Below, piece by piece: positions 2,000 to 14,395 of a stretch of DNA of 64,000 bases. A model generated the notes under the pieces. The model had not been told where the DNA came from. It did no database searches and worked only from the letters and a program-made list of their open reading frames with translations. Origin of the DNA: Candidatus Omnitrophota bacterium (GTDB taxonomy: Bacteria; Omnitrophota; Gorgyraeia; Duberdicusellales; 4484-171); NCBI GenBank assembly GCA_043823745.1, contig JBDRAN010000028.1, positions 3,116 to 67,115 on the forward strand, given 5' to 3'. Each line of letters begins with the position of its first letter. Positions within the stretch are counted from its first letter, which is position 1. The translations under genes were made by a program, and so were the position numbers.

Positions 2000-3409
2000 A
2001 TGGATAATCCTAAGATAGTTATTATTGGAGCCGGGCCCGCGGGTATGGGGTGCGCGTACACATTGGCTCACGGAGGCGTTCCTTCCGTGCTGGTAGAACA
2101 GGAGGCTGACGTTGGCGGGCTCTGCCGGACGATTGATCATTTAGGATATCTTTTTGACATCGGTGGGCACCGGTTTATTACAAAATCAGACGAAGTAAAA
2201 AAAATATGGGAAGAGGTTCTCGGAAGCGAGTTTCTTTTGGTCAAGCGCTTATCGAGAATTTATTATCGTCAAAGGTTTTTTAGCTACCCGCTTCAGTTTT
2301 TCGATGTTGTCTGGCATTTAGGCCCTCTAGAAAGCCTTTTCTGTCTTTTTAGTTATCTGCGTGCGCGGTTTTTTCCTTGTCAGAACAATGACAGTTTCGA
2401 GGGTTGGATTATCAATCATTTCGGCCGGCGACTCTATAATATTTTTTTTAAAAGTTATTCGGAAAAAGTCTGGGAAATACCGTGCAGCAGTCTTTCTTCT
2501 GATTGGGCGCGCCAGAGGATCAGAGGGCTCTCCTTACGGGTTGCGTTAAAGAATTCCATATTCGCAGGCTCGCGCGAAACGCCAAAAACGTTAATTACGC
2601 AATTCAGCTATCCTAAAAGAGGCCCCGGTCAATTCTATCAGAGTTTACGGGACGCCTGTGTTACCATGGGCGGTGATTTTTCTCTTAACACCACCGTGCG
2701 TGCGATACGCCACGATAACAATAAAATTACCGCGATCGAAACGATTTCAAAAAGCTCAGGGGAGAAAAGGGTGCAGGATGTTGAGTATCTCTTTTCCAGT
2801 ATTCCGCTTCCTGAATTGATACAGGCGTTGCAGCCCCGGCCGCCGGATGAAGTCATTGCTGCCGTTGCGTGCCTCCAGTTTAGAAGCCTGATTGTTGTTA
2901 ATATTATTCTGGACAAAGAAGATGTGTTTCCCGATCAGTGGCTATATATCCATGAACCGAACGTAAAATTAGGGCGCATCCAGAATTTTAAAAACTGGAG
3001 CCACTATATGGTTACCGATACCAAGAAAACATCACTTGGGTTGGAATATTTTTGTAATAAAGGTGATTATTTGTGGAGTATGGATGATATTGAACTCAGG
3101 AATTTTGCTTTGAAGGAATTGAGCAAAATAGGATTTACGTTACGTCACCACCTTCTCGATAGTTTCGTGGTGCGTTCCGCCAACGCGTACCCCCGCTATA
3201 CGCTCGACTATCGCGAGCATCTTTCCGTGTTGCGCGCGTACGTGGCGCAGTTTTCAAATATGCAGACCATAGGCCGCGCCGGTCTTTTTCGATACGATAA
3301 CTCTGACCGCGCGTTACTTTCGGGGGTCTATGCCGCTCGTAATTTTTTATACCAGGAAAAACATGATTTATGGCAATTTGATACGGATCGTGATTTTATG
3401 GAATCATAG
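2000..3409 (+). CDS. NAD(P)/FAD-dependent oxidoreductase (amine-oxidase/UDP-galactopyranose-mutase-like fold).
   Basis: The N-terminus has a dinucleotide-binding motif, IVIIGAGPAGMGCAY...VLVEQEADVGG, and the protein is 469 aa. Confidence 0.7.
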   Translation: MDNPKIVIIGAGPAGMGCAYTLAHGGVPSVLVEQEADVGGLCRTIDHLGYLFDIGGHRFITKSDEVKKIWEEVLGSEFLLVKRLSRIYYRQRFFSYPLQFFDVVWHLGPLESLFCLFSYLRARFFPCQNNDSFEGWIINHFGRRLYNIFFKSYSEKVWEIPCSSLSSDWARQRIRGLSLRVALKNSIFAGSRETPKTLITQFSYPKRGPGQFYQSLRDACVTMGGDFSLNTTVRAIRHDNNKITAIETISKSSGEKRVQDVEYLFSSIPLPELIQALQPRPPDEVIAAVACLQFRSLIVVNIILDKEDVFPDQWLYIHEPNVKLGRIQNFKNWSHYMVTDTKKTSLGLEYFCNKGDYLWSMDDIELRNFALKELSKIGFTLRHHLLDSFVVRSANAYPRYTLDYREHLSVLRAYVAQFSNMQTIGRAGLFRYDNSDRALLSGVYAARNFLYQEKHDLWQFDTDRDFMES

Positions 3410-3500: not shown

Positions 3501-5192
3501 ATGAATATCCTCAAAAGAAAAATTTCGAAACATAGTGTAGTCATCGGGCTTATCATCGCCGCTGGTTTTCTGTTGCGTTTTCGTCAATATTTCTATAACA
3601 AGTCGCTATGGCTTGATGAAGCTTCTTTGGCGCTCAACATCATACACAGGCCGTGGTGGCAACTTTTTAAACCTCTTGATTATCTTCAGGGTGCCCCTGT
3701 CGGATTTTTACTCATAGAAAAGTTCTTTATCTACCTCTTCGGTAGTGGCGAGTATGTGTTGCGGCTCTTCCCTTTCATAAGCGCTCTTGCAGCACTTTTT
3801 CTTTTTTTTAATGTTGCGCGTTTTCTGCTTGATCGCGATGCGCTTGTTCTCGCAATGACTTTAATGAGTTTTTCGGGTGTCCTCATTTATTATTCCTCCG
3901 AGTGTAAGCAGTATTCCTCAGATGTTTTTTTAGCTTTGATAGTCCTAAATATTTTTTTGCGCCCGTACCGGCCTATGATATCAGTCGTTCGCGCGTTAGC
4001 CTTGGGGCTTATGTGTGCGGTATTTATTTTCATTTCGCATCCGATATTTTTTGTTTTGCTTGGTATAGCGGTGGTTAACGTTGGTTCGTGCATACGAGAG
4101 AAAAAGTGGCTTACGATGGCCGGTTTGTTGTCTGTTTTTGTGTTTGGATTGATAAGTTTTGTGATCGCTTATTTTGTTTCGCTGCGTTCTTTGACGATGA
4201 CACAACCGCTCGTGGGCTGGAGCAGGGGGTTTGTGCCGCACCTTTCTTTTTCCCTACGTAGCTTACAATCGCTTACACAATGGTTTCAGGGTAATGACAG
4301 TCTTGGTTTTTTGATAGACGTTCGCCCCGCATGGGTGAGCCTGGGGCTTCTTGTAATCGGTAGTTACTCGATGTTCCGTGAGAGAAGACGAGATTTTTTA
4401 ATTCTCGGGCTGCCGGTGTTTTTTGTTTTCGTGGCATCAGTATTCCATAAATATCCGTTTTATCAGAGGATGCTCTTGTTCCTGATTCCATCAGTACTCA
4501 TTATATTATCAAAAGGTTTCTCAGAATTGCTTCGATTTCTTCCAAGTAACAAAGTAAAATCGATACTTATCATCTTATGCATGTGTTTTCTGCTCTTTGT
4601 TCCTGTTGTTAAGGCCATGATATCCGGTTTCTTTCCGTATGGGGCTGAGTCTCTGAAGCCGGTCCTTTCGTATGTTAGTTCGTATGCTCGCTCTTTTCCA
4701 AGGACTAATCCAACGGTCTATCTTTCGAACCGTGCGGTATCCGCGTTTCAATACTATGCCCCGCGCTATGGGCTTGATAAGAATAGATGTATTGTGATGC
4801 CGTATAAACCATCGCGCGCGGAATTTAAAAAGGATATGAATCGATTGGTAGGCACAAAAAAAGTTTGGGTGATTGCCTCGGGTATTTCTGAAGCTCGGCA
4901 GATAGAGGAAGAAAGCTTCTACCTCGGTTATCTGGATCGTAAGGGGCCGCGCCTGAGGGCTTTTAAATGTAATGATGCATCAGCCTACCTGTATGATTTA
5001 AGCCGTCCGCGTCGTGCGGGTACCAATTCTGTTCCAGCGAAAACCTTAAAAGTTGAGGGTAGCGGAAAGTATGTTCGGCGGGCGACACGGGCTCTTTGGT
5101 TCATCGAACGGGTGACCGGCTCGCGCTGTGTGCCGTGCCTTCTTATTCTTGAGCGATTTTTTAATGCGTTGCGCGCGTACGTATACAGTTAG
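3501..5192 (+). CDS. GT39 / ArnT-PMT-like polytopic membrane glycosyltransferase.
   Basis: It is 563 aa with many TM helices. An early loop carries WLDEA, and the C-terminal domain is soluble, which is typical of undecaprenyl/dolichyl-phosphate-sugar dependent glycosyltransferases. Confidence 0.55.
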   Translation: MNILKRKISKHSVVIGLIIAAGFLLRFRQYFYNKSLWLDEASLALNIIHRPWWQLFKPLDYLQGAPVGFLLIEKFFIYLFGSGEYVLRLFPFISALAALFLFFNVARFLLDRDALVLAMTLMSFSGVLIYYSSECKQYSSDVFLALIVLNIFLRPYRPMISVVRALALGLMCAVFIFISHPIFFVLLGIAVVNVGSCIREKKWLTMAGLLSVFVFGLISFVIAYFVSLRSLTMTQPLVGWSRGFVPHLSFSLRSLQSLTQWFQGNDSLGFLIDVRPAWVSLGLLVIGSYSMFRERRRDFLILGLPVFFVFVASVFHKYPFYQRMLLFLIPSVLIILSKGFSELLRFLPSNKVKSILIILCMCFLLFVPVVKAMISGFFPYGAESLKPVLSYVSSYARSFPRTNPTVYLSNRAVSAFQYYAPRYGLDKNRCIVMPYKPSRAEFKKDMNRLVGTKKVWVIASGISEARQIEEESFYLGYLDRKGPRLRAFKCNDASAYLYDLSRPRRAGTNSVPAKTLKVEGSGKYVRRATRALWFIERVTGSRCVPCLLILERFFNALRAYVYS

Positions 5193-5382: not shown

Positions 5383-6105
5383 ATGGCCAAAGATAAGATT
5401 TTCAGCAAAAAGCAGTCAGCGATTGACTTTAATTTTAAAAAGAAGACGGCAGCGGTCTTTGATGATATGCTTAACCGCTCGGTCCCGTTTTATCGGGAGA
5501 TCCAGCGCATGACGACCGAGATCGCCGCTGATTTTGCCTTACCCGGGACTAATGTGTATGATTTGGGTTGTTCGACAGGGACTACGCTGCTTGCGCTGGA
5601 TAAGAAATTACCGGAGGATGTTTCGTATATCGGGTTCGATTACTCTCAGGATATGCTCAATAAGGCAGAGGAGAAAATAAAAGCTCATAAGGTTAAGCGG
5701 CCGTATAAACTTTTCTGCCGCGATTTAAATAACGGGGTTCCGGTTGAGAACGCCTCAGTGGTGATTTTTACGCTTACGCTGCAGTTTGTGCGCCCCCTGG
5801 TGCGCCAGAAAGTTATCGAGGAGATCGCCCGGGGAATCAATAAGGGGGGATGCCTCATTTTGATTGAGAAAGTTTTGAGCCTTGATTCCAAGCTTAACAG
5901 GCTTTTTATTAACTATTACTATGAGTTTAAGAAGCGGCAGGGATACAGCCGGCTTGAGATCGCGCAGAAGCGCGAAGCGCTTGAGAACGTGTTGATTCCC
6001 TACCGGCCGGAGGAGAACCGCCAGCTGCTGCTTGAAAGCGGTTTTAAAGAATGCGATATGTTTTTTAAGTGGTATAACTTCTGCGGAATGCTCGCCTTAA
6101 AATAA
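5383..6105 (+). CDS. cmoA: Carboxy-S-adenosyl-L-methionine synthase CmoA.
   Basis: Similarity to E. coli CmoA is strong. Matching blocks are VFDDMLNRSVPFY, GTNVYDLGCSTG, NASVVIFTLTLQF, GYSRLEIAQKREALENV and YNFCGMLALK. Confidence 0.8.
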   Translation: MAKDKIFSKKQSAIDFNFKKKTAAVFDDMLNRSVPFYREIQRMTTEIAADFALPGTNVYDLGCSTGTTLLALDKKLPEDVSYIGFDYSQDMLNKAEEKIKAHKVKRPYKLFCRDLNNGVPVENASVVIFTLTLQFVRPLVRQKVIEEIARGINKGGCLILIEKVLSLDSKLNRLFINYYYEFKKRQGYSRLEIAQKREALENVLIPYRPEENRQLLLESGFKECDMFFKWYNFCGMLALK

Positions 6106-6106
6106 T

Positions 6107-6853
6107 ATGATAGTTGCCGCGTGGCGTACATTATTACTGACTACCGGAGCGTTTTTCTTCCGCTTCCGCAACTTTTTATTTCCCGCTTTTGTCATTATTC
6201 TGCTGGTGTTTACCAAGCCGGCGCTATTCCTGGGTCGGCGTGATCTTGATGCCATCATCGTTACGTTCGGGTTTCTTGTTGCTATGCTTGGCATATTCTT
6301 TCGGCTCTTTGTGATCGGGTTTGCCTATATTAAGCGCGGCGGCAAGGATGGCCGGGTGTATGCCGACAACCTTGTTATTGAAGGAGTGTACGCGCATGTG
6401 CGTAACCCGATGTATGTGGCTAATTTCTTTAATATCGTGGGTATCGCGTTGATTTACGGTTCGTTCTGGGTCTACGTGCTTGTCATCCCGTTTTTTACCT
6501 ATGTGTATCTCGCGATCGTTACCACGGAAGAAAATTATCTGCACAAGCGCTTTGGCGCGGAATTCGAAACATACTGCAAGGCGGTGAACCGTTTCATCCC
6601 CAATTTTTCCGGTATCAAACAAACCCTTGGGAAATTCTCCTATGATTGGACCAAGGCGCTGCGTAAAGAGTATGGAACGACCTTTGGGGTGCTCCTGGGA
6701 TGCTATGTCATGTGGCTGCGTAAGATGTATTCTTTTTACGGCGCCACCTTTAGCAGGCACACGGTATTTTTTGCGGTTGCACCCGTTGTTTTTCTCGTCC
6801 TCTTGTATTCCTTCGTGCGATACTTAAAGAAGAGCGGCCGACTTTCTTCGTAA
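6107..6853 (+). CDS. Membrane methyltransferase of the isoprenylcysteine carboxyl methyltransferase / phospholipid methyltransferase (ICMT/PEMT) family.
   Basis: It has multiple TM helices and the family motifs VRNPMYVANF and EENYLHKRFGAEFETY. It starts 1 nt after the cmoA stop. Confidence 0.65.
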   Translation: MIVAAWRTLLLTTGAFFFRFRNFLFPAFVIILLVFTKPALFLGRRDLDAIIVTFGFLVAMLGIFFRLFVIGFAYIKRGGKDGRVYADNLVIEGVYAHVRNPMYVANFFNIVGIALIYGSFWVYVLVIPFFTYVYLAIVTTEENYLHKRFGAEFETYCKAVNRFIPNFSGIKQTLGKFSYDWTKALRKEYGTTFGVLLGCYVMWLRKMYSFYGATFSRHTVFFAVAPVVFLVLLYSFVRYLKKSGRLSS

Positions 6854-10189: not shown

Positions 10190-11479
10190 ATGCCTCGAAT
10201 TACGCGTTCTTCTTTATTATTTGTATTTTTGTGCGTCGGGATTCCTTTGACTGGGCATTGTGATGAGGCCATGACCTGGCAGGATTGCATTAAGGAAGCG
10301 CAGAAGTACCATCCTGATCTGATTTCCGCAGAAGAAAACGTCAAGCAATCGCAGGCAAATAAAAATATTGCCGCAAGCGGTCTTTTCCCGCAGGTTTCAA
10401 GCTCCATCAGCGCTACTATCAAAGATACCAATGCTTACTCGGCAGGCAATAAAACCCACACGGTGGCTGATACCTATAAATATGGCGGAACGGTAACGCA
10501 GCTTATTTTTGACAGTTTCAAAACCAGCTCTCATGTTAAGGCCGCCCGCGAAAATGTAAAAGCGGCTCGGTATAATTACCGTTTTACCTCATCGCAGGTG
10601 CGTTTTCGTTTACGTACCGCGTTTGTCGATCTTCTGAAAGCCCAGGAGGCAGTCACGATTGCCCAGGAAATCTATAAAATACGAAAGAGTAACCTGGACT
10701 TAATTTCTTTGCGTTACGACTCCGGTATTGAACATAAAGGAGCATTATTGACCGCCCAGGCGAATCTTGCCGAAGCAGAATTCGAAATTAGTCAAGCGCG
10801 CCGAGCGCTTGAAGTGGCACAGCGGGAGCTTCTTAAAGAAATCGGTAGAGAAAAGTTTTCAGCGCTTCGCGCAATTGGGGAATTGAGTGTTTCAAGCAAA
10901 GACTGCCAGAAGCCTGACTTTGAAGCTTTGGCGGACAATACGCCCACATTGCGAAAATTGATTGCCCAGCGTATTGCCGCTCGCTACGGAATACGAAGTG
11001 CGCAGGCAAATTTTTTACCCGAATTAAGCGCGCAAGGAGGCATCGCAAGGAGCGGCAACCGGTGGCCCACAACAAGCAGGGAATGGTCTGCGGGGCTTAC
11101 TTTGTCATTACCCTTATTTGAAGGAGGCCTGCGCCTTGCGGAACTTGCGGGCGCTCGAGCCGTTTTTAATCAGGCAAAAGCTGACGAACGAAGCGCAAAG
11201 GCAGGGATTATCCTTACGCTTGCGCAGCAATGGGCGGCGTTTCGGGATGCCGCCGAGACGGTAGAAGTGCAAAATAAATTTCTTGTTGCCGCCGAGGCAC
11301 GCGCTAAAATCGCCGAGGAACAATATTCGTTAGGATTGCTGCAATTTGATAACTGGACGATTATCGAGGATACTCTGGTCAGCGCCAAAAAGAGTTTTCT
11401 AAATGCCCAGACGAATGCCTTGTTGGCCCAGGCGAATTGGATCCAGGCGAAAGGAGAGACGTTGGAATATGTTGAATAA
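10190..11479 (+). CDS. TolC-family outer membrane efflux protein.
   Basis: It is 429 aa with a signal peptide, an internal tandem duplication and coiled-coil-rich segments, which fits the outer membrane factor (OMF) family. Confidence 0.75.
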   Translation: MPRITRSSLLFVFLCVGIPLTGHCDEAMTWQDCIKEAQKYHPDLISAEENVKQSQANKNIAASGLFPQVSSSISATIKDTNAYSAGNKTHTVADTYKYGGTVTQLIFDSFKTSSHVKAARENVKAARYNYRFTSSQVRFRLRTAFVDLLKAQEAVTIAQEIYKIRKSNLDLISLRYDSGIEHKGALLTAQANLAEAEFEISQARRALEVAQRELLKEIGREKFSALRAIGELSVSSKDCQKPDFEALADNTPTLRKLIAQRIAARYGIRSAQANFLPELSAQGGIARSGNRWPTTSREWSAGLTLSLPLFEGGLRLAELAGARAVFNQAKADERSAKAGIILTLAQQWAAFRDAAETVEVQNKFLVAAEARAKIAEEQYSLGLLQFDNWTIIEDTLVSAKKSFLNAQTNALLAQANWIQAKGETLEYVE

Positions 11480-12425
11480 AAAAATGCGGTTATTGTTTAT
11501 CATGGCGGTGGTGGTGATTATTGCGGTGGTATCGATAGCTAAGGCTATGCAGAAGAAAGCATCCGGTGACATTATTAAGGAAATACAACCGGTTATGAGT
11601 TCTATTAAAACGTTTATATCATGTACCGGGACCGTGTTGCCTAAGAATCGTTTGGAAATAAAACCACCGGTAAACGGAAGAATAGAACGTATTTTGGTTA
11701 AGGAAGGTGAGAAGGTAACCATAGGGCAGGTTCTTGTTTTGATGAGCTCGACTGAAAGGGCAGCGCTCCTGGATGCCGCGCGTGGTAAGGGCGAAGCTGC
11801 TTTTGCGTATTGGGAGGAGACGTATAAACCAATACCGTTGCCGGCACCTATTGACGGTGAAGTGATCGTAGCGACTACGCAACCAGGTCAAACCGTGACA
11901 ACCGCTGATGCGGCGGTGGTATTGTCTGATCATCTCATCGTCCGAGCGCAGGTTGATGAGACCGATATCGGAAAGATTGTATTGGGAATGAAGGCGATTA
12001 TCACGCTTGATGCCTATCCGGATGTAAAAATAAAAGCATCCGTTGAACATATGTATTACGAATCGAAAACAGTAAACAACGTAACTATGTATGAAGTGGA
12101 CCTGGTTCCGGAAAATGTACCTCAATTTTTCCGTTCGGGAATGAATGCTTCCGTTGATTTTGTACACCATGACAAAAAAAATATCTTAGTCATTCCGGTT
12201 GAGGCAGTGCATACGGATAATGGCGAATCGTATGTTTTATCAAAGCAGAAAAACAATACAGGGCCCGTAAAAACGAAGGTAGCATTAGGAGTCTCCGATG
12301 ATAAGAATGTAGAAGTAATCTCCGGAATTACTGAGGATAGCCGGATTATGGTTAAGTCGAAACGGTACGCGCTTCCTCAGAATGCTGCCGGAAAGAATCC
12401 GTTTATGCCTGGCCGGTCGCGATGA
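11469..12425 (+). CDS. macA: Periplasmic adaptor subunit (MacA/HlyD family).
   Basis: It has an N-terminal TM anchor and then a lipoyl/beta-barrel adaptor fold. The likely start, ATG 11469, overlaps the TolC stop. Confidence 0.7.
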   Translation: MLNKKMRLLFIMAVVVIIAVVSIAKAMQKKASGDIIKEIQPVMSSIKTFISCTGTVLPKNRLEIKPPVNGRIERILVKEGEKVTIGQVLVLMSSTERAALLDAARGKGEAAFAYWEETYKPIPLPAPIDGEVIVATTQPGQTVTTADAAVVLSDHLIVRAQVDETDIGKIVLGMKAIITLDAYPDVKIKASVEHMYYESKTVNNVTMYEVDLVPENVPQFFRSGMNASVDFVHHDKKNILVIPVEAVHTDNGESYVLSKQKNNTGPVKTKVALGVSDDKNVEVISGITEDSRIMVKSKRYALPQNAAGKNPFMPGRSR

Positions 12426-14395
12426 TGATTAAAGTAGATACGATACATAAAACATATCATATGGGGGTTGTCGAGGTCCGCGCCTTGCAGGGTGTGTCGC
12501 TTGAGATTGCAACCGGAGAATTTGTGGCGATCATGGGTCCTTCAGGGTCGGGGAAGTCGACATTAATGCATATTCTTGGTCTTCTTGATAGGCCTGACGC
12601 CGGTGAGTTCTATCTGGGACAAAGGAAGATTAACGATCTTTCTGATGAGGAATTATCCGCGATCCGCAATCGGCTGGTTGGGTTTGTCTTCCAGCAATTT
12701 CATTTATTACCCCGGATGACGGCTTTAGAGAACGCCGAGTTACCGCTTATTTATGCGGGTAAACGGCATTTAAAAGAAAAAGCAGAGCGGAGGATCCAAG
12801 AGGTCGGGCTCGCCACACGAATGGATCACCGGCCGAATGAGCTTTCCGGAGGCCAGCAGCAGCGGGTTGCGATCGCCCGGTCACTTGTCAATGACCCGTT
12901 AATTATTATGGCTGATGAGCCGACAGGAAACCTTGACTCAAAAAGCCAGGAAGAGATTATGGCCATCCTTGAAAATTTAAATCAAAAAGGAAAGACCATT
13001 ATTATGGTTACGCACGAAAAGGAAGTCGCGGCGCACGCGAGGCGCATCATACATATGCGCGATGGGCGTATTACTTCTGATGAGAAATCGTACACCTCTT
13101 CTCAATCGCCCGAAGAAAATCAGGCAGATGCGATCATCGATGTGGTTTTATCGAAGTCTGAAAGAAAGGCCAGGCAAACTGAGTTCTGGGATTATCTGCA
13201 CCAGGCAGCAGGCGCCATGGTATCGCATAAAATGCGTTCGTTTTTATCTATCCTGGGCATACTCATCGGGGTAGCTGCGGTTATCGCTATGCTTGCGGTC
13301 GGCCAGGGAGCGAAAGAATCGATCGAGAAACAGTTGGCGGGGCTTGGCTCTAATCTTTTAGTGGTCAGGCCCGGCTCTGCAAGGGTCCACGGGGTAGCCA
13401 TGGAGTCCGGGGCAGTAACACGTTTTACCTTACAGGATGTTGCGTCTATCGCTAAACTGAGCGATGTGGTAAAGAGGGCGAGCCCCTCGGTAGCCGGCAG
13501 AGGCCAGATGGTATATGGAAATAAAAACTGGAATACGCGGGTTGAGGGAGTAGGAGTTGATTATGCCCAGATGCGCGCCGCAAAGCCGGAAATAGGAAGA
13601 TTTTTTACCGACGACGAGGTTAAAACGAGGGAAAAGGTTATTTTGCTCGGGACCACGGTGGCTCGGGAGCTTTTTGGAGATGCGAATCCTCTGGGCGAAA
13701 CAATAAAATTGAACTTGGGTAATTTTAGGGTCATCGGGATACTGCCTTCAAAAGGAGCGAATACGTTTCACGACCAGGACGACACGGCAATCATCCCCAT
13801 CACGACCGCCATGTTCAGGGTTTTCGGTAAGGAATACGTTGACTCTATCAATGTAGAGGCAAAAAGTGCTGATCTCATTGATGCTGCGCAGGCCGCCATA
13901 TCCGGACTTATCATAAAAGAGCACCGTTTAAGCAGTAAGGACGCAGAAGATTCGTTCCAGATCCGTAACATGTCAGACATTAAAGATACGCTTGAGGCTA
14001 CCACTAAAACAATGTCGTTGCTCCTGGGGTCAATTGCCGCTATTTCGCTTTTAGTCGGAGGCATCGGCATTATGAATATCATGCTGGTATCGGTTACCGA
14101 ACGCACGCGCGAAATCGGTTTACGTAAGGCGATCGGCGCCACCAATAAAGATGTGATGGTGCAATTTCTTATTGAGGCGATTCTTATGTCGCTTATCGGC
14201 GGCGCCGGCGGCATCGTCTTGGGGACAGGGATATCGTTTCTTATAACTCTTTTTGCCGGCTGGACCGTGAGTGTTTCTTCGTCTTCAATTATTCTTGCCA
14301 CAACTTTTTCGTTAATGATTGGCGTAATTTTTGGCCTTATGCCGGCGCAAAAAGCCTCGCGGCTTGACCCTATAGAGGCTTTGCGGTATGAATAA
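12422..14395 (+). CDS. macB: MacB-type ABC transporter, with ATPase and FtsX-like permease domains fused.
   Basis: It has Walker [10 protein letters not shown], the signature [13 protein letters not shown] and Walker [15 protein letters not shown]-terminal 4-TM FtsX domain follows. The ATGA overlap with macA suggests coupling. Confidence 0.85.

Follow-up and report, generated by a model that had tools for sequence, protein, structure and literature searches.

The window analysed here comprises 64,000 nucleotides of a Candidatus Omnitrophota genome (assembly GCA_043823745.1, contig JBDRAN010000028.1). It contains a gene for a homologue of CmoA, the synthase of carboxy-S-adenosylmethionine (Cx-SAM); directly behind it lies a gene for an integral-membrane protein with the fold of isoprenylcysteine carboxyl methyltransferases (ICMT) and PEMT-family phospholipid methyltransferases. 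Cx-SAM is one of very few natural analogues of S-adenosylmethionine (SAM), and E. coli makes it. On the basis of sequence and gene-neighbourhood comparisons we propose that the two genes probably form a self-contained carboxymethylation cascade whose acceptor is a molecule of the membrane. Gene linkage and gene fusions point to a membrane enzyme that would use Cx-SAM and transfer its carboxymethyl group. An earlier, sequence-only reading of the window had suggested a Cx-SAM-dependent carboxymethylation of a membrane lipid or a small molecule; conserved adjacency of the two genes and their links to prephenate, both described below, support that suggestion, and from them we infer the chemistry.

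In order to follow the pair in other genomes, an alignment of 33 relatives of the membrane protein was used to scan one genome per GTDB species. This yielded 288 stretches encoding a relative, of which the best 80 loci (designated by L numbers) were analysed and underlie all 80-locus counts given here. A CmoA homologue adjoins the membrane gene in 77 of the 80. The loci span about 15 phylum-level lineages with otherwise unrelated gene contexts (Omnitrophota, Planctomycetota, Desulfobacterota, Verrucomicrobiota, Binatia, Gamma-, Beta- and Alphaproteobacteria, Calditrichota, KSB1, Eisenbacteria, Bdellovibrionota, Spirochaetota, Bacteroidota, Gemmatimonadota, Acidobacteriota and Krumholzibacteriota). 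This pairing is far beyond chance, and the adjacency on whose conservation the sequence-only reading hinged is thus widely conserved.

The two genes lie on the same strand in 73 of the 77 pairs, with cmoA directly upstream in nearly all of them. The other four pairs are divergent and belong to three Methylobacter genomes and one KSB1 metagenome-assembled genome (MAG). The Methylobacter loci come from cultured methanotrophs (M. marinus A45, L029; M. luteus IMV-B-3098, L030; Methylobacter sp. sgz302048, L041), in which an intergenic region of about 0.5–0.7 kb stands in place of a coupled operon. The one-nucleotide junction of the window recurs identically in L001–L003, 41 of 74 same-strand pairs (window included) offer a start codon whose overlap with the cmoA stop is −4 or −1, and independent gene-caller data give 4-nucleotide gene overlaps in L082, L083 and L085. 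In the window no Shine-Dalgarno-like purine run precedes the ATG of the membrane gene at 6107, which is consistent with translational coupling of the pair. A scan for promoters and terminators around the pair gave counts no better than those in shuffled sequence.

Linkage is also apparent from the CmoA side. Five CmoA clusters, 65–70% identical, were chosen blind to their neighbouring genes, and in four of these a PF04191 gene lies directly downstream. In addition, for at least 19 of the top 120 CmoA clusters the longest contig is equal in size to that of a membrane-protein cluster, which indicates that those CmoA and membrane-protein clusters share contigs. No third conserved gene was found beside the pair when all open reading frames (ORFs) of the 80 loci were clustered and 271 first and second neighbours were scanned against Pfam. 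Searching with E. coli CmoB (tblastn, E≤1e-3) detected no cmoB within 10 kb of a paired cmoA in the 80 loci, about 1.2 Mb in all; in E. coli MG1655, cmoA and cmoB overlap by 4 nucleotides.

CmoA carboxylates SAM using prephenate, the product of chorismate mutase (PMC10491745), and two independent observations tie the membrane enzyme to this metabolite. The first is gene fusion. A family profile search of 1.84 billion representative proteins gave 278 representatives at E≤1e-30, and among its top hits five 50%-identity clusters (P0319, P0311, P0317, P0345 and P0363) consist of the membrane enzyme with a C-terminal chorismate mutase type II domain, which scores 56–66 bits against a cutoff of 27. 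CmoA is encoded directly downstream of the fusion in both clusters whose contigs were examined (P0311 and P0363); this fusion-adjacent CmoA reaches 220 bits, above the TIGR00740 cutoff, is 37% identical to E. coli CmoA and has the Lys-Arg199 pair intact. The fusion loci are L087, L088 and L089; gene order in the P0311 and P0363 contigs is reversed, fusion first and then cmoA, and a FabA-like dehydratase follows cmoA in L087. The second tie is gene order. Directly upstream of cmoA, six other loci from six lineages carry a shikimate- or prephenate-pathway gene, and in four of these it encodes a chorismate mutase, either fused to 3-deoxy-D-arabino-heptulosonate 7-phosphate (DAHP) synthase (L064, L071, L079) or standing alone (L077). 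L016 has a DAHP synthase at this position, and in L051 the gene before the CmoA-like partner combines DAHP synthase and prephenate-dehydratase domains. Because only the Cx-SAM branch needs prephenate, a plain SAM-dependent lipid methyltransferase has no cause to be fused to chorismate mutase. The fusions also bear on topology: as a cytoplasmic chorismate mutase follows the C-terminus of the membrane enzyme, that terminus would be cytoplasmic, and the cofactor site, if placed as in ICMT structures, would be expected on the same side. In some lineages the fused mutase would supply prephenate at the membrane.

Two other lines of evidence were set aside. ORFs of 430–520 amino acids that cover both genes in high-GC loci had the appearance of cmoA-ICMT fusions and proved to be ORF-extension artefacts, as the two genes are in different frames; the genuine long proteins of the membrane family are the chorismate mutase fusions, tandem double-ICMT proteins and one OmpA-like fusion. 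A mirror-tree comparison of CmoA with its partner gave a Mantel r of 0.79 (0 of 999 permutations), a value expected for any co-inherited genes and hence unspecific.

The sequence-only reading had called the first gene cmoA and the second an ICMT/PEMT-family membrane methyltransferase bearing RNPMY and EExxLxxxFG motifs, had placed them one nucleotide apart and had seen no cmoB in the window. All of this holds. The first product exceeds the CmoA equivalog model TIGR00740 (238.5 bits, cutoff 193.3) and can be aligned over its full length to E. coli CmoA (PDB 4GEK, 168.8 bits); it scores 173.5 bits with the enterobacterial model NF011995, under the cutoff of 285. The second passes PF04191 (PEMT; 49 bits, cutoff 25, residues 78–151) and lies marginally under the cutoff for PF04140 (ICMT; 23.8 bits against 24), both motifs are present, and the gap is exactly one nucleotide (Table 1). 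E. coli CmoB finds nothing in the window by tblastn at E≤1e-3, and at E≤10 only a 39-residue noise match.

The paired CmoA looks like a genuine Cx-SAM synthase, judging from family membership and conserved residues. In E. coli CmoA, Arg199 forms a salt bridge to the Cx-SAM carboxylate and sets CmoA apart from ordinary methyltransferases, and Tyr39, Asp89 and Phe137 contact SAM (PMC3663124). Among 77 aligned CmoA sequences, 75 retain the Arg199 equivalent, the one from the window included, and all 77 retain the three SAM-contact residues. The paired CmoAs also score above the TIGR00740 cutoff, the Bdellovibrionales partners described below excepted. The paired CmoAs are 48–84% identical to each other across phyla (median 58%) and 33–40% identical to E. 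coli CmoA. Even gammaproteobacterial examples share 36–39% with E. coli CmoA and 53–65% with the Omnitrophota protein; for those such as Methylobacter the values are 38% and 53–55%. Since the paired CmoAs are closer to each other than to E. coli CmoA, they form a separate subfamily that moves with its partner rather than the canonical tRNA orthologue, and automatic annotation of these proteins as tRNA-modification enzymes is probably misleading for the whole subfamily.

One member of this subfamily occurs in another setting. On metagenome contig SRR21285878_52419 (L091:1-6723), the fifth of the CmoA-side clusters and the one without a downstream PF04191 gene, a CmoA 73% identical to that of the window has no PEMT neighbour and is part of a cluster resembling those for RiPPs, peptides that ribosomes synthesize and that are modified post-translationally. 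The gene order is PqqD, ScmC, PqqD, radical SAM/SPASM protein, cmoA, a 654-residue protein in which several methyltransferase domains are combined (TRM5-TYW2 and class I) and another radical SAM/SPASM protein. This locus may encode a further undescribed Cx-SAM-dependent peptide modification.

The PF04191 match of the membrane protein establishes its fold and cofactor-binding core, not phospholipid N-methylation. The ICMT equivalog model NF040696 gives 49.3 bits against a cutoff of 160. The closest curated family is LmtA (TIGR04571), with a match of 89.2 bits (E 3.6e-25) that falls short of the cutoff of 325 and is collinear over 198 residues (residues 13–210 on profile positions 10–207); by these scores the protein is a distant LmtA relative and not a member. 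An AlphaFold2 model is all-helical (pLDDT 88.6), and its top Foldseek matches are the ICMT structures 4a2n and 5vg9 (probability 0.99). The family profile likewise matches the cofactor-binding core of Ma-ICMT (4A2N, E 3e-11) and Tribolium ICMT (Tc-ICMT, 5VG9).

Within the core, the second cofactor motif reads E-E-N-Y-L-H-K-R-F-G in the window protein, and its E141, E142 and L145 are invariant in the family. The extra carboxylate of Cx-SAM is met by basic residues, Lys91 and Arg315 in CmoB and an Arg in CmoX. These residues confer selectivity over SAM. In the membrane enzyme, R66 and the K76-R77 loop are the candidate contacts for this carboxylate. The loop, K76–G82, overlaps the sole segment of the model with pLDDT below 50 (residues 76–83); that it might serve as a lid or as a binder of the cofactor carboxylate is inference only. 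In Tc-ICMT a pair of arginines, Arg173 and Arg246, grips the carboxylate of the acceptor close to the group that is transferred (PMC8358657). Arg246 aligns with Ile137 of the window protein, and as the second clamp arginine is thus lost, the protein is not a true ICMT. The extension beyond the core contains a conserved basic segment, Y-D-W-K-K-A-L-R-K-D-Y-G-T, and is modelled as helices 181–210 and 217–242. Table 1 lists the features of the pair.

Table 1. Features of the cmoA–membrane enzyme pair in the window
Feature	Position	Strand	Basis and remarks
cmoA, putative Cx-SAM synthase, 240 amino acids	5383..6105	+	TIGR00740 match; distinct subfamily paired with ICMT-like gene
Gene junction: cmoA TAA 6103-6105, single T 6106, membrane-gene ATG 6107-6109	6103..6109	+	Sequence reading
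Integral-membrane ICMT/PEMT-fold enzyme, 248 amino acids, proposed Cx-SAM-dependent carboxymethyltransferase	6107..6853	+	PF04191; distant LmtA relative
Arg66 codon, family-invariant	6302..6304	+	Aligns with Tc-ICMT Arg173
Family-specific loop K76-R77-G78-G79-K80-D81-G82	6332..6352	+	R77, G78, G79 invariant; predicted flexible
R-N-P-M-Y motif, residues 99-103, ICMT/PEMT cofactor-binding signature	6401..6415	+	Aligns with R-H-P-M-Y (Ma-ICMT) and R-H-P-S-Y (Tc-ICMT)
E-E-x-x-L-x-x-x-F-G motif, residues 141-150, second cofactor-binding signature	6527..6556	+	Alignment to ICMTs
C-terminal extension past the ICMT core, residues 167-248	6605..6850	+	Match to ICMT structures ends near residue 166-171

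The wider family includes further architectures. In L010 (4192-5617) the gene directly downstream of the family member encodes another ICMT-family paralogue, which is more distant. Among P0241 (507 amino acids), P0379 (604 amino acids) and P0368 (442 amino acids), two proteins have tandem double ICMT-like domains, and in one an additional hydrophobic helix precedes an OmpA-like peptidoglycan-binding domain.

We propose that the cascade would operate at the cytoplasmic face of the inner membrane. CmoA would combine SAM with prephenate and carboxylate the SAM methyl group to give Cx-SAM, which the co-translated membrane enzyme would then bind in a cofactor pocket facing the cytoplasm. The carboxymethyl group (+58 Da, C2H2O2) would pass to a nucleophile of some common molecule embedded in the membrane, with release of S-adenosylhomocysteine. 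Since no gene for substrate synthesis travels with the pair and the module is autonomous in very different genomes, the acceptor would be expected to be a housekeeping lipid of the envelope. Our best guess, by analogy with LmtA as the closest characterised relative, is a lipid phosphate, for example the lipid A 1-phosphate or another lipid phosphomonoester, which would be converted to a carboxymethyl phosphodiester. Alternative acceptors would be the amine of phosphatidylethanolamine (PE) or of an aminolipid, or a hydroxyl group.

Neighbouring genes are informative about the acceptor in a minority of loci. Nine of the 80 loci contain ArnT-like PMT_2 glycosyltransferases, and eight contain family 2 glycosyltransferase (GT2) genes. 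In L082 (1-8765; JGI metagenome 3300037044), the pair is preceded by genes for an OmpR-type response regulator, a histidine kinase and a 723-residue protein of the LtaS/OpgB-like phosphoglycerol-transferase family, and is followed by phoU-pstB-pstA-pstC, a context that hints at envelope remodelling tied to phosphate status. The PMT_2, GT2 and LtaS-like neighbours, together with the relation to LmtA, are weak hints in favour of an envelope lipid phosphate.

Several observations weigh against this proposal. In the Bdellovibrionales MAGs L023 and L051 the membrane enzyme is paired with a divergent CmoA-like protein whose residue 199 is Ser. These proteins (L023:9274-10735 and L051:172-3231) score 153–164 bits against the cutoff of 193 and are 32–33% identical to the window CmoA. 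Their product may be another SAM derivative, or their mode of binding Cx-SAM may differ. Three of the 80 loci have no cmoA near the membrane gene. One of them, L049, is a 2.6-kb contig; the other two, L063 and L069, are near-identical and lack cmoA within 10 kb, and no other clear family member is without a cmoA in its vicinity. Despite their respective labels of Solirubrobacteraceae and Binatia, they share coordinates (L063:10001-10714 and L069:10001-10714) and neighbours and probably represent a single lineage to which binning gave two names. We considered these two as natural SAM-dependent controls and dropped them, as they keep every invariant residue and are hence uninformative. SAM-dependent ICMTs have the invariant Arg66 as well, and by this alignment the residue is non-discriminating. 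As to the acceptor, the LmtA score is far under its cutoff, and envelope genes stand beside only about 10% of the loci. CmoA could also, or only, serve tRNA, the search for cmoB having covered the window and the 80 loci. Finally, no enzyme of the ICMT fold is known to use Cx-SAM.

The most serious alternative is that the membrane protein is an ordinary SAM-dependent lipid methyltransferase, either of the LmtA type or acting on the nitrogen of PE or an aminolipid, and that CmoA serves the tRNA nucleoside uridine 5-oxyacetic acid (cmo5U) through an unlinked cmoB. The two genes would in that case be neighbours for reasons of common regulation or SAM economy and would share no pathway. We regard this as unlikely. 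It has in its favour that the cofactor motifs are of the standard ICMT/PEMT type, that LmtA uses SAM, and that the cmoB searches were limited to the window and 10 kb around each paired cmoA. However, it must accommodate a pairing that is nearly universal among the loci across these phyla, is often translationally coupled and has no other conserved neighbour, and it leaves the chorismate mutase fusions without a reason. Even in Gammaproteobacteria no cmoB lies within 10 kb of a paired cmoA, in spite of the cmoA–cmoB overlap of E. coli, and the paired CmoA belongs to the distinct subfamily far from E. coli CmoA. Neither the sequence nor the gene-neighbourhood comparison revealed any sign of plain-SAM use by the membrane enzyme.

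It is also possible, although quite unlikely in our estimate, that the acceptor is not a lipid but a membrane-associated protein, a peptide or a small hydrophobic or volatile molecule such as a thiol (MddA-type), which would make the pair a protein-modification or detoxification module. ICMT canonically acts on a lipidated protein, no lipid-synthesis gene is conserved next to the pair, and the RiPP-like cluster of L091, where the closely related CmoA accompanies another methyltransferase, suggests that this CmoA subfamily also feeds peptide pathways. Against this, no gene for a precursor peptide or protein substrate is conserved beside the pair either, LmtA acts on lipid A, and the informative neighbours are envelope enzymes.

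On tRNA, CmoM methylates cmo5U. A CmoM-like role for the membrane protein, as a SAM-dependent carboxyl O-methyltransferase with ICMT chemistry that caps a carboxymethyl group set by an unlinked Cx-SAM transferase, would agree with carboxylate methylation by ICMT-family enzymes including bacterial RhlM (PMC11069360) and with the alignment of Arg66 to a clamp arginine, and would still account for the linkage to cmoA and prephenate supply, but it is very unlikely given that it requires a second transferase, none of which is conserved near the pair, that the other clamp arginine is replaced by Ile137 and that the two-gene module stands by itself across very different genomes.

We therefore return to a Cx-SAM-dependent membrane carboxymethyltransferase as the preferred reading. 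Going one step further, we lean, with no great margin of confidence, towards this being the first integral-membrane Cx-SAM enzyme, one that makes an unrecognised carboxymethylated envelope lipid and is carried as a portable two-gene cassette in about 15 phyla. Its product might be, to name two examples, N-carboxymethyl-PE or a carboxymethyl phosphodiester formed on a phospholipid such as lipid A.

Several other genes lie in the vicinity of the pair. Directly upstream in the window is a 563-residue polytopic membrane protein (3501..5192) with no match in Pfam, NCBIfam or the PDB. We considered it as an ArnT/PMT_2-type glycosyltransferase, as in nine other loci; with an hhalign probability of 6% this was not established. 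Further upstream lie a PRK07208-type FAD-dependent oxidoreductase (2000..3409, 573.6 bits) and, on the reverse strand, a 339-residue ORF (812-1831) that has no Pfam match and a faint N-terminal match to HprK-related kinase B (TIGR04355, 18 bits against 200). Downstream of the pair are three consecutive ORFs (10190..11479, 11403..12425 and 12422..14395). The last of these clusters with a MacB-type permease gene (MacB_PCD and FtsX domains; L001:98-1600) just upstream of the L001 pair; this neighbour common to two Omnitrophota loci, known from ORF clustering alone, is probably coincidental.

If the proposal is correct, Cx-SAM chemistry extends to lipids or other membrane molecules, and a new fold joins the enzymes that select Cx-SAM over the far more abundant SAM. 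Each earlier new consumer, acting on tRNA, a peptide thiol, a nucleotide antibiotic or phage DNA, exposed a new biological modification. A lipidome shift of +58.005 Da would be expected in Omnitrophota, Planctomycetota, Desulfobacterota, Binatia, Verrucomicrobiota and methanotrophs.

Among known membrane methyltransferases, the Leptospira lipid A Kdo2 1-phosphate O-methyltransferase LmtA resembles the window enzyme in membrane fold and size and in part of the post-ICMT extension. We know of no report linking LmtA to cmoA. ICMT/Ste14 (Ma-ICMT and Tribolium ICMT) and RhlM share with the window enzyme the C-terminal cofactor core, the RxPxY and EExxLxxxFG motifs and the Arg173 equivalent. In contrast to ICMT, the window family has its own KRGGKDG loop, a C-terminal extension of about 80 residues and Ile137 in place of the second clamp arginine. 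The literature that we searched contains no paper in which CmoA is mentioned together with ICMT or isoprenylcysteine, and describes no Cx-SAM transferase that is membrane-embedded or directed at lipids.

The known users of Cx-SAM offer the other comparison. The statement in the sequence-only reading that CmoB is the sole known consumer is outdated, as TglF, the C-terminal domain (CTD) of MccB and phage CmoX also consume Cx-SAM (PMC10491745, PMC12783734). All known consumers are soluble Rossmann-fold enzymes whose targets are nucleic acids, nucleotides or peptides, and ordinary methyltransferases have also been found to accept Cx-SAM (PMC7496830). The window pair resembles E. coli CmoA/CmoB in having the same prephenate-dependent synthase with Arg199 and the same order of a synthase gene and then, often overlapping, a transferase gene. 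It differs in the partner, which has no similarity to CmoB, a soluble Rossmann-fold enzyme acting on tRNA, but is a polytopic protein of the ICMT/PEMT fold with an expected membrane target. In TglE/TglF (3-thiaglutamate), MccS/MccB-CTD (Bacillus microcin C) and phage CmoA/CmoX (5-carboxymethylcytosine) a CmoA homologue is likewise found beside a non-tRNA transferase, and a CmoA next to a methyltransferase homologue other than CmoB was the clue that led to the proven CmoX, TglF and MccB (PMC12783734, PMC10491745). CmoX was discovered through a cmoA that adjoins a methyltransferase homologue and is not accompanied by cmoB (PMC12783734), and the window pair has this signature too. Whereas TglF, MccB-CTD and CmoX are soluble class I (Rossmann) enzymes, the proposed transferase of the window is an integral-membrane protein of the ICMT fold. 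Chorismate mutase fusions, seen in its family, are not among the arrangements described for TglF, MccB and CmoX (PMC10491745, PMC12783734). Taken together, these sequence comparisons suggest that the pair follows the known logic of a CmoA plus a transferase and would bring to it a new fold and a new class of target.

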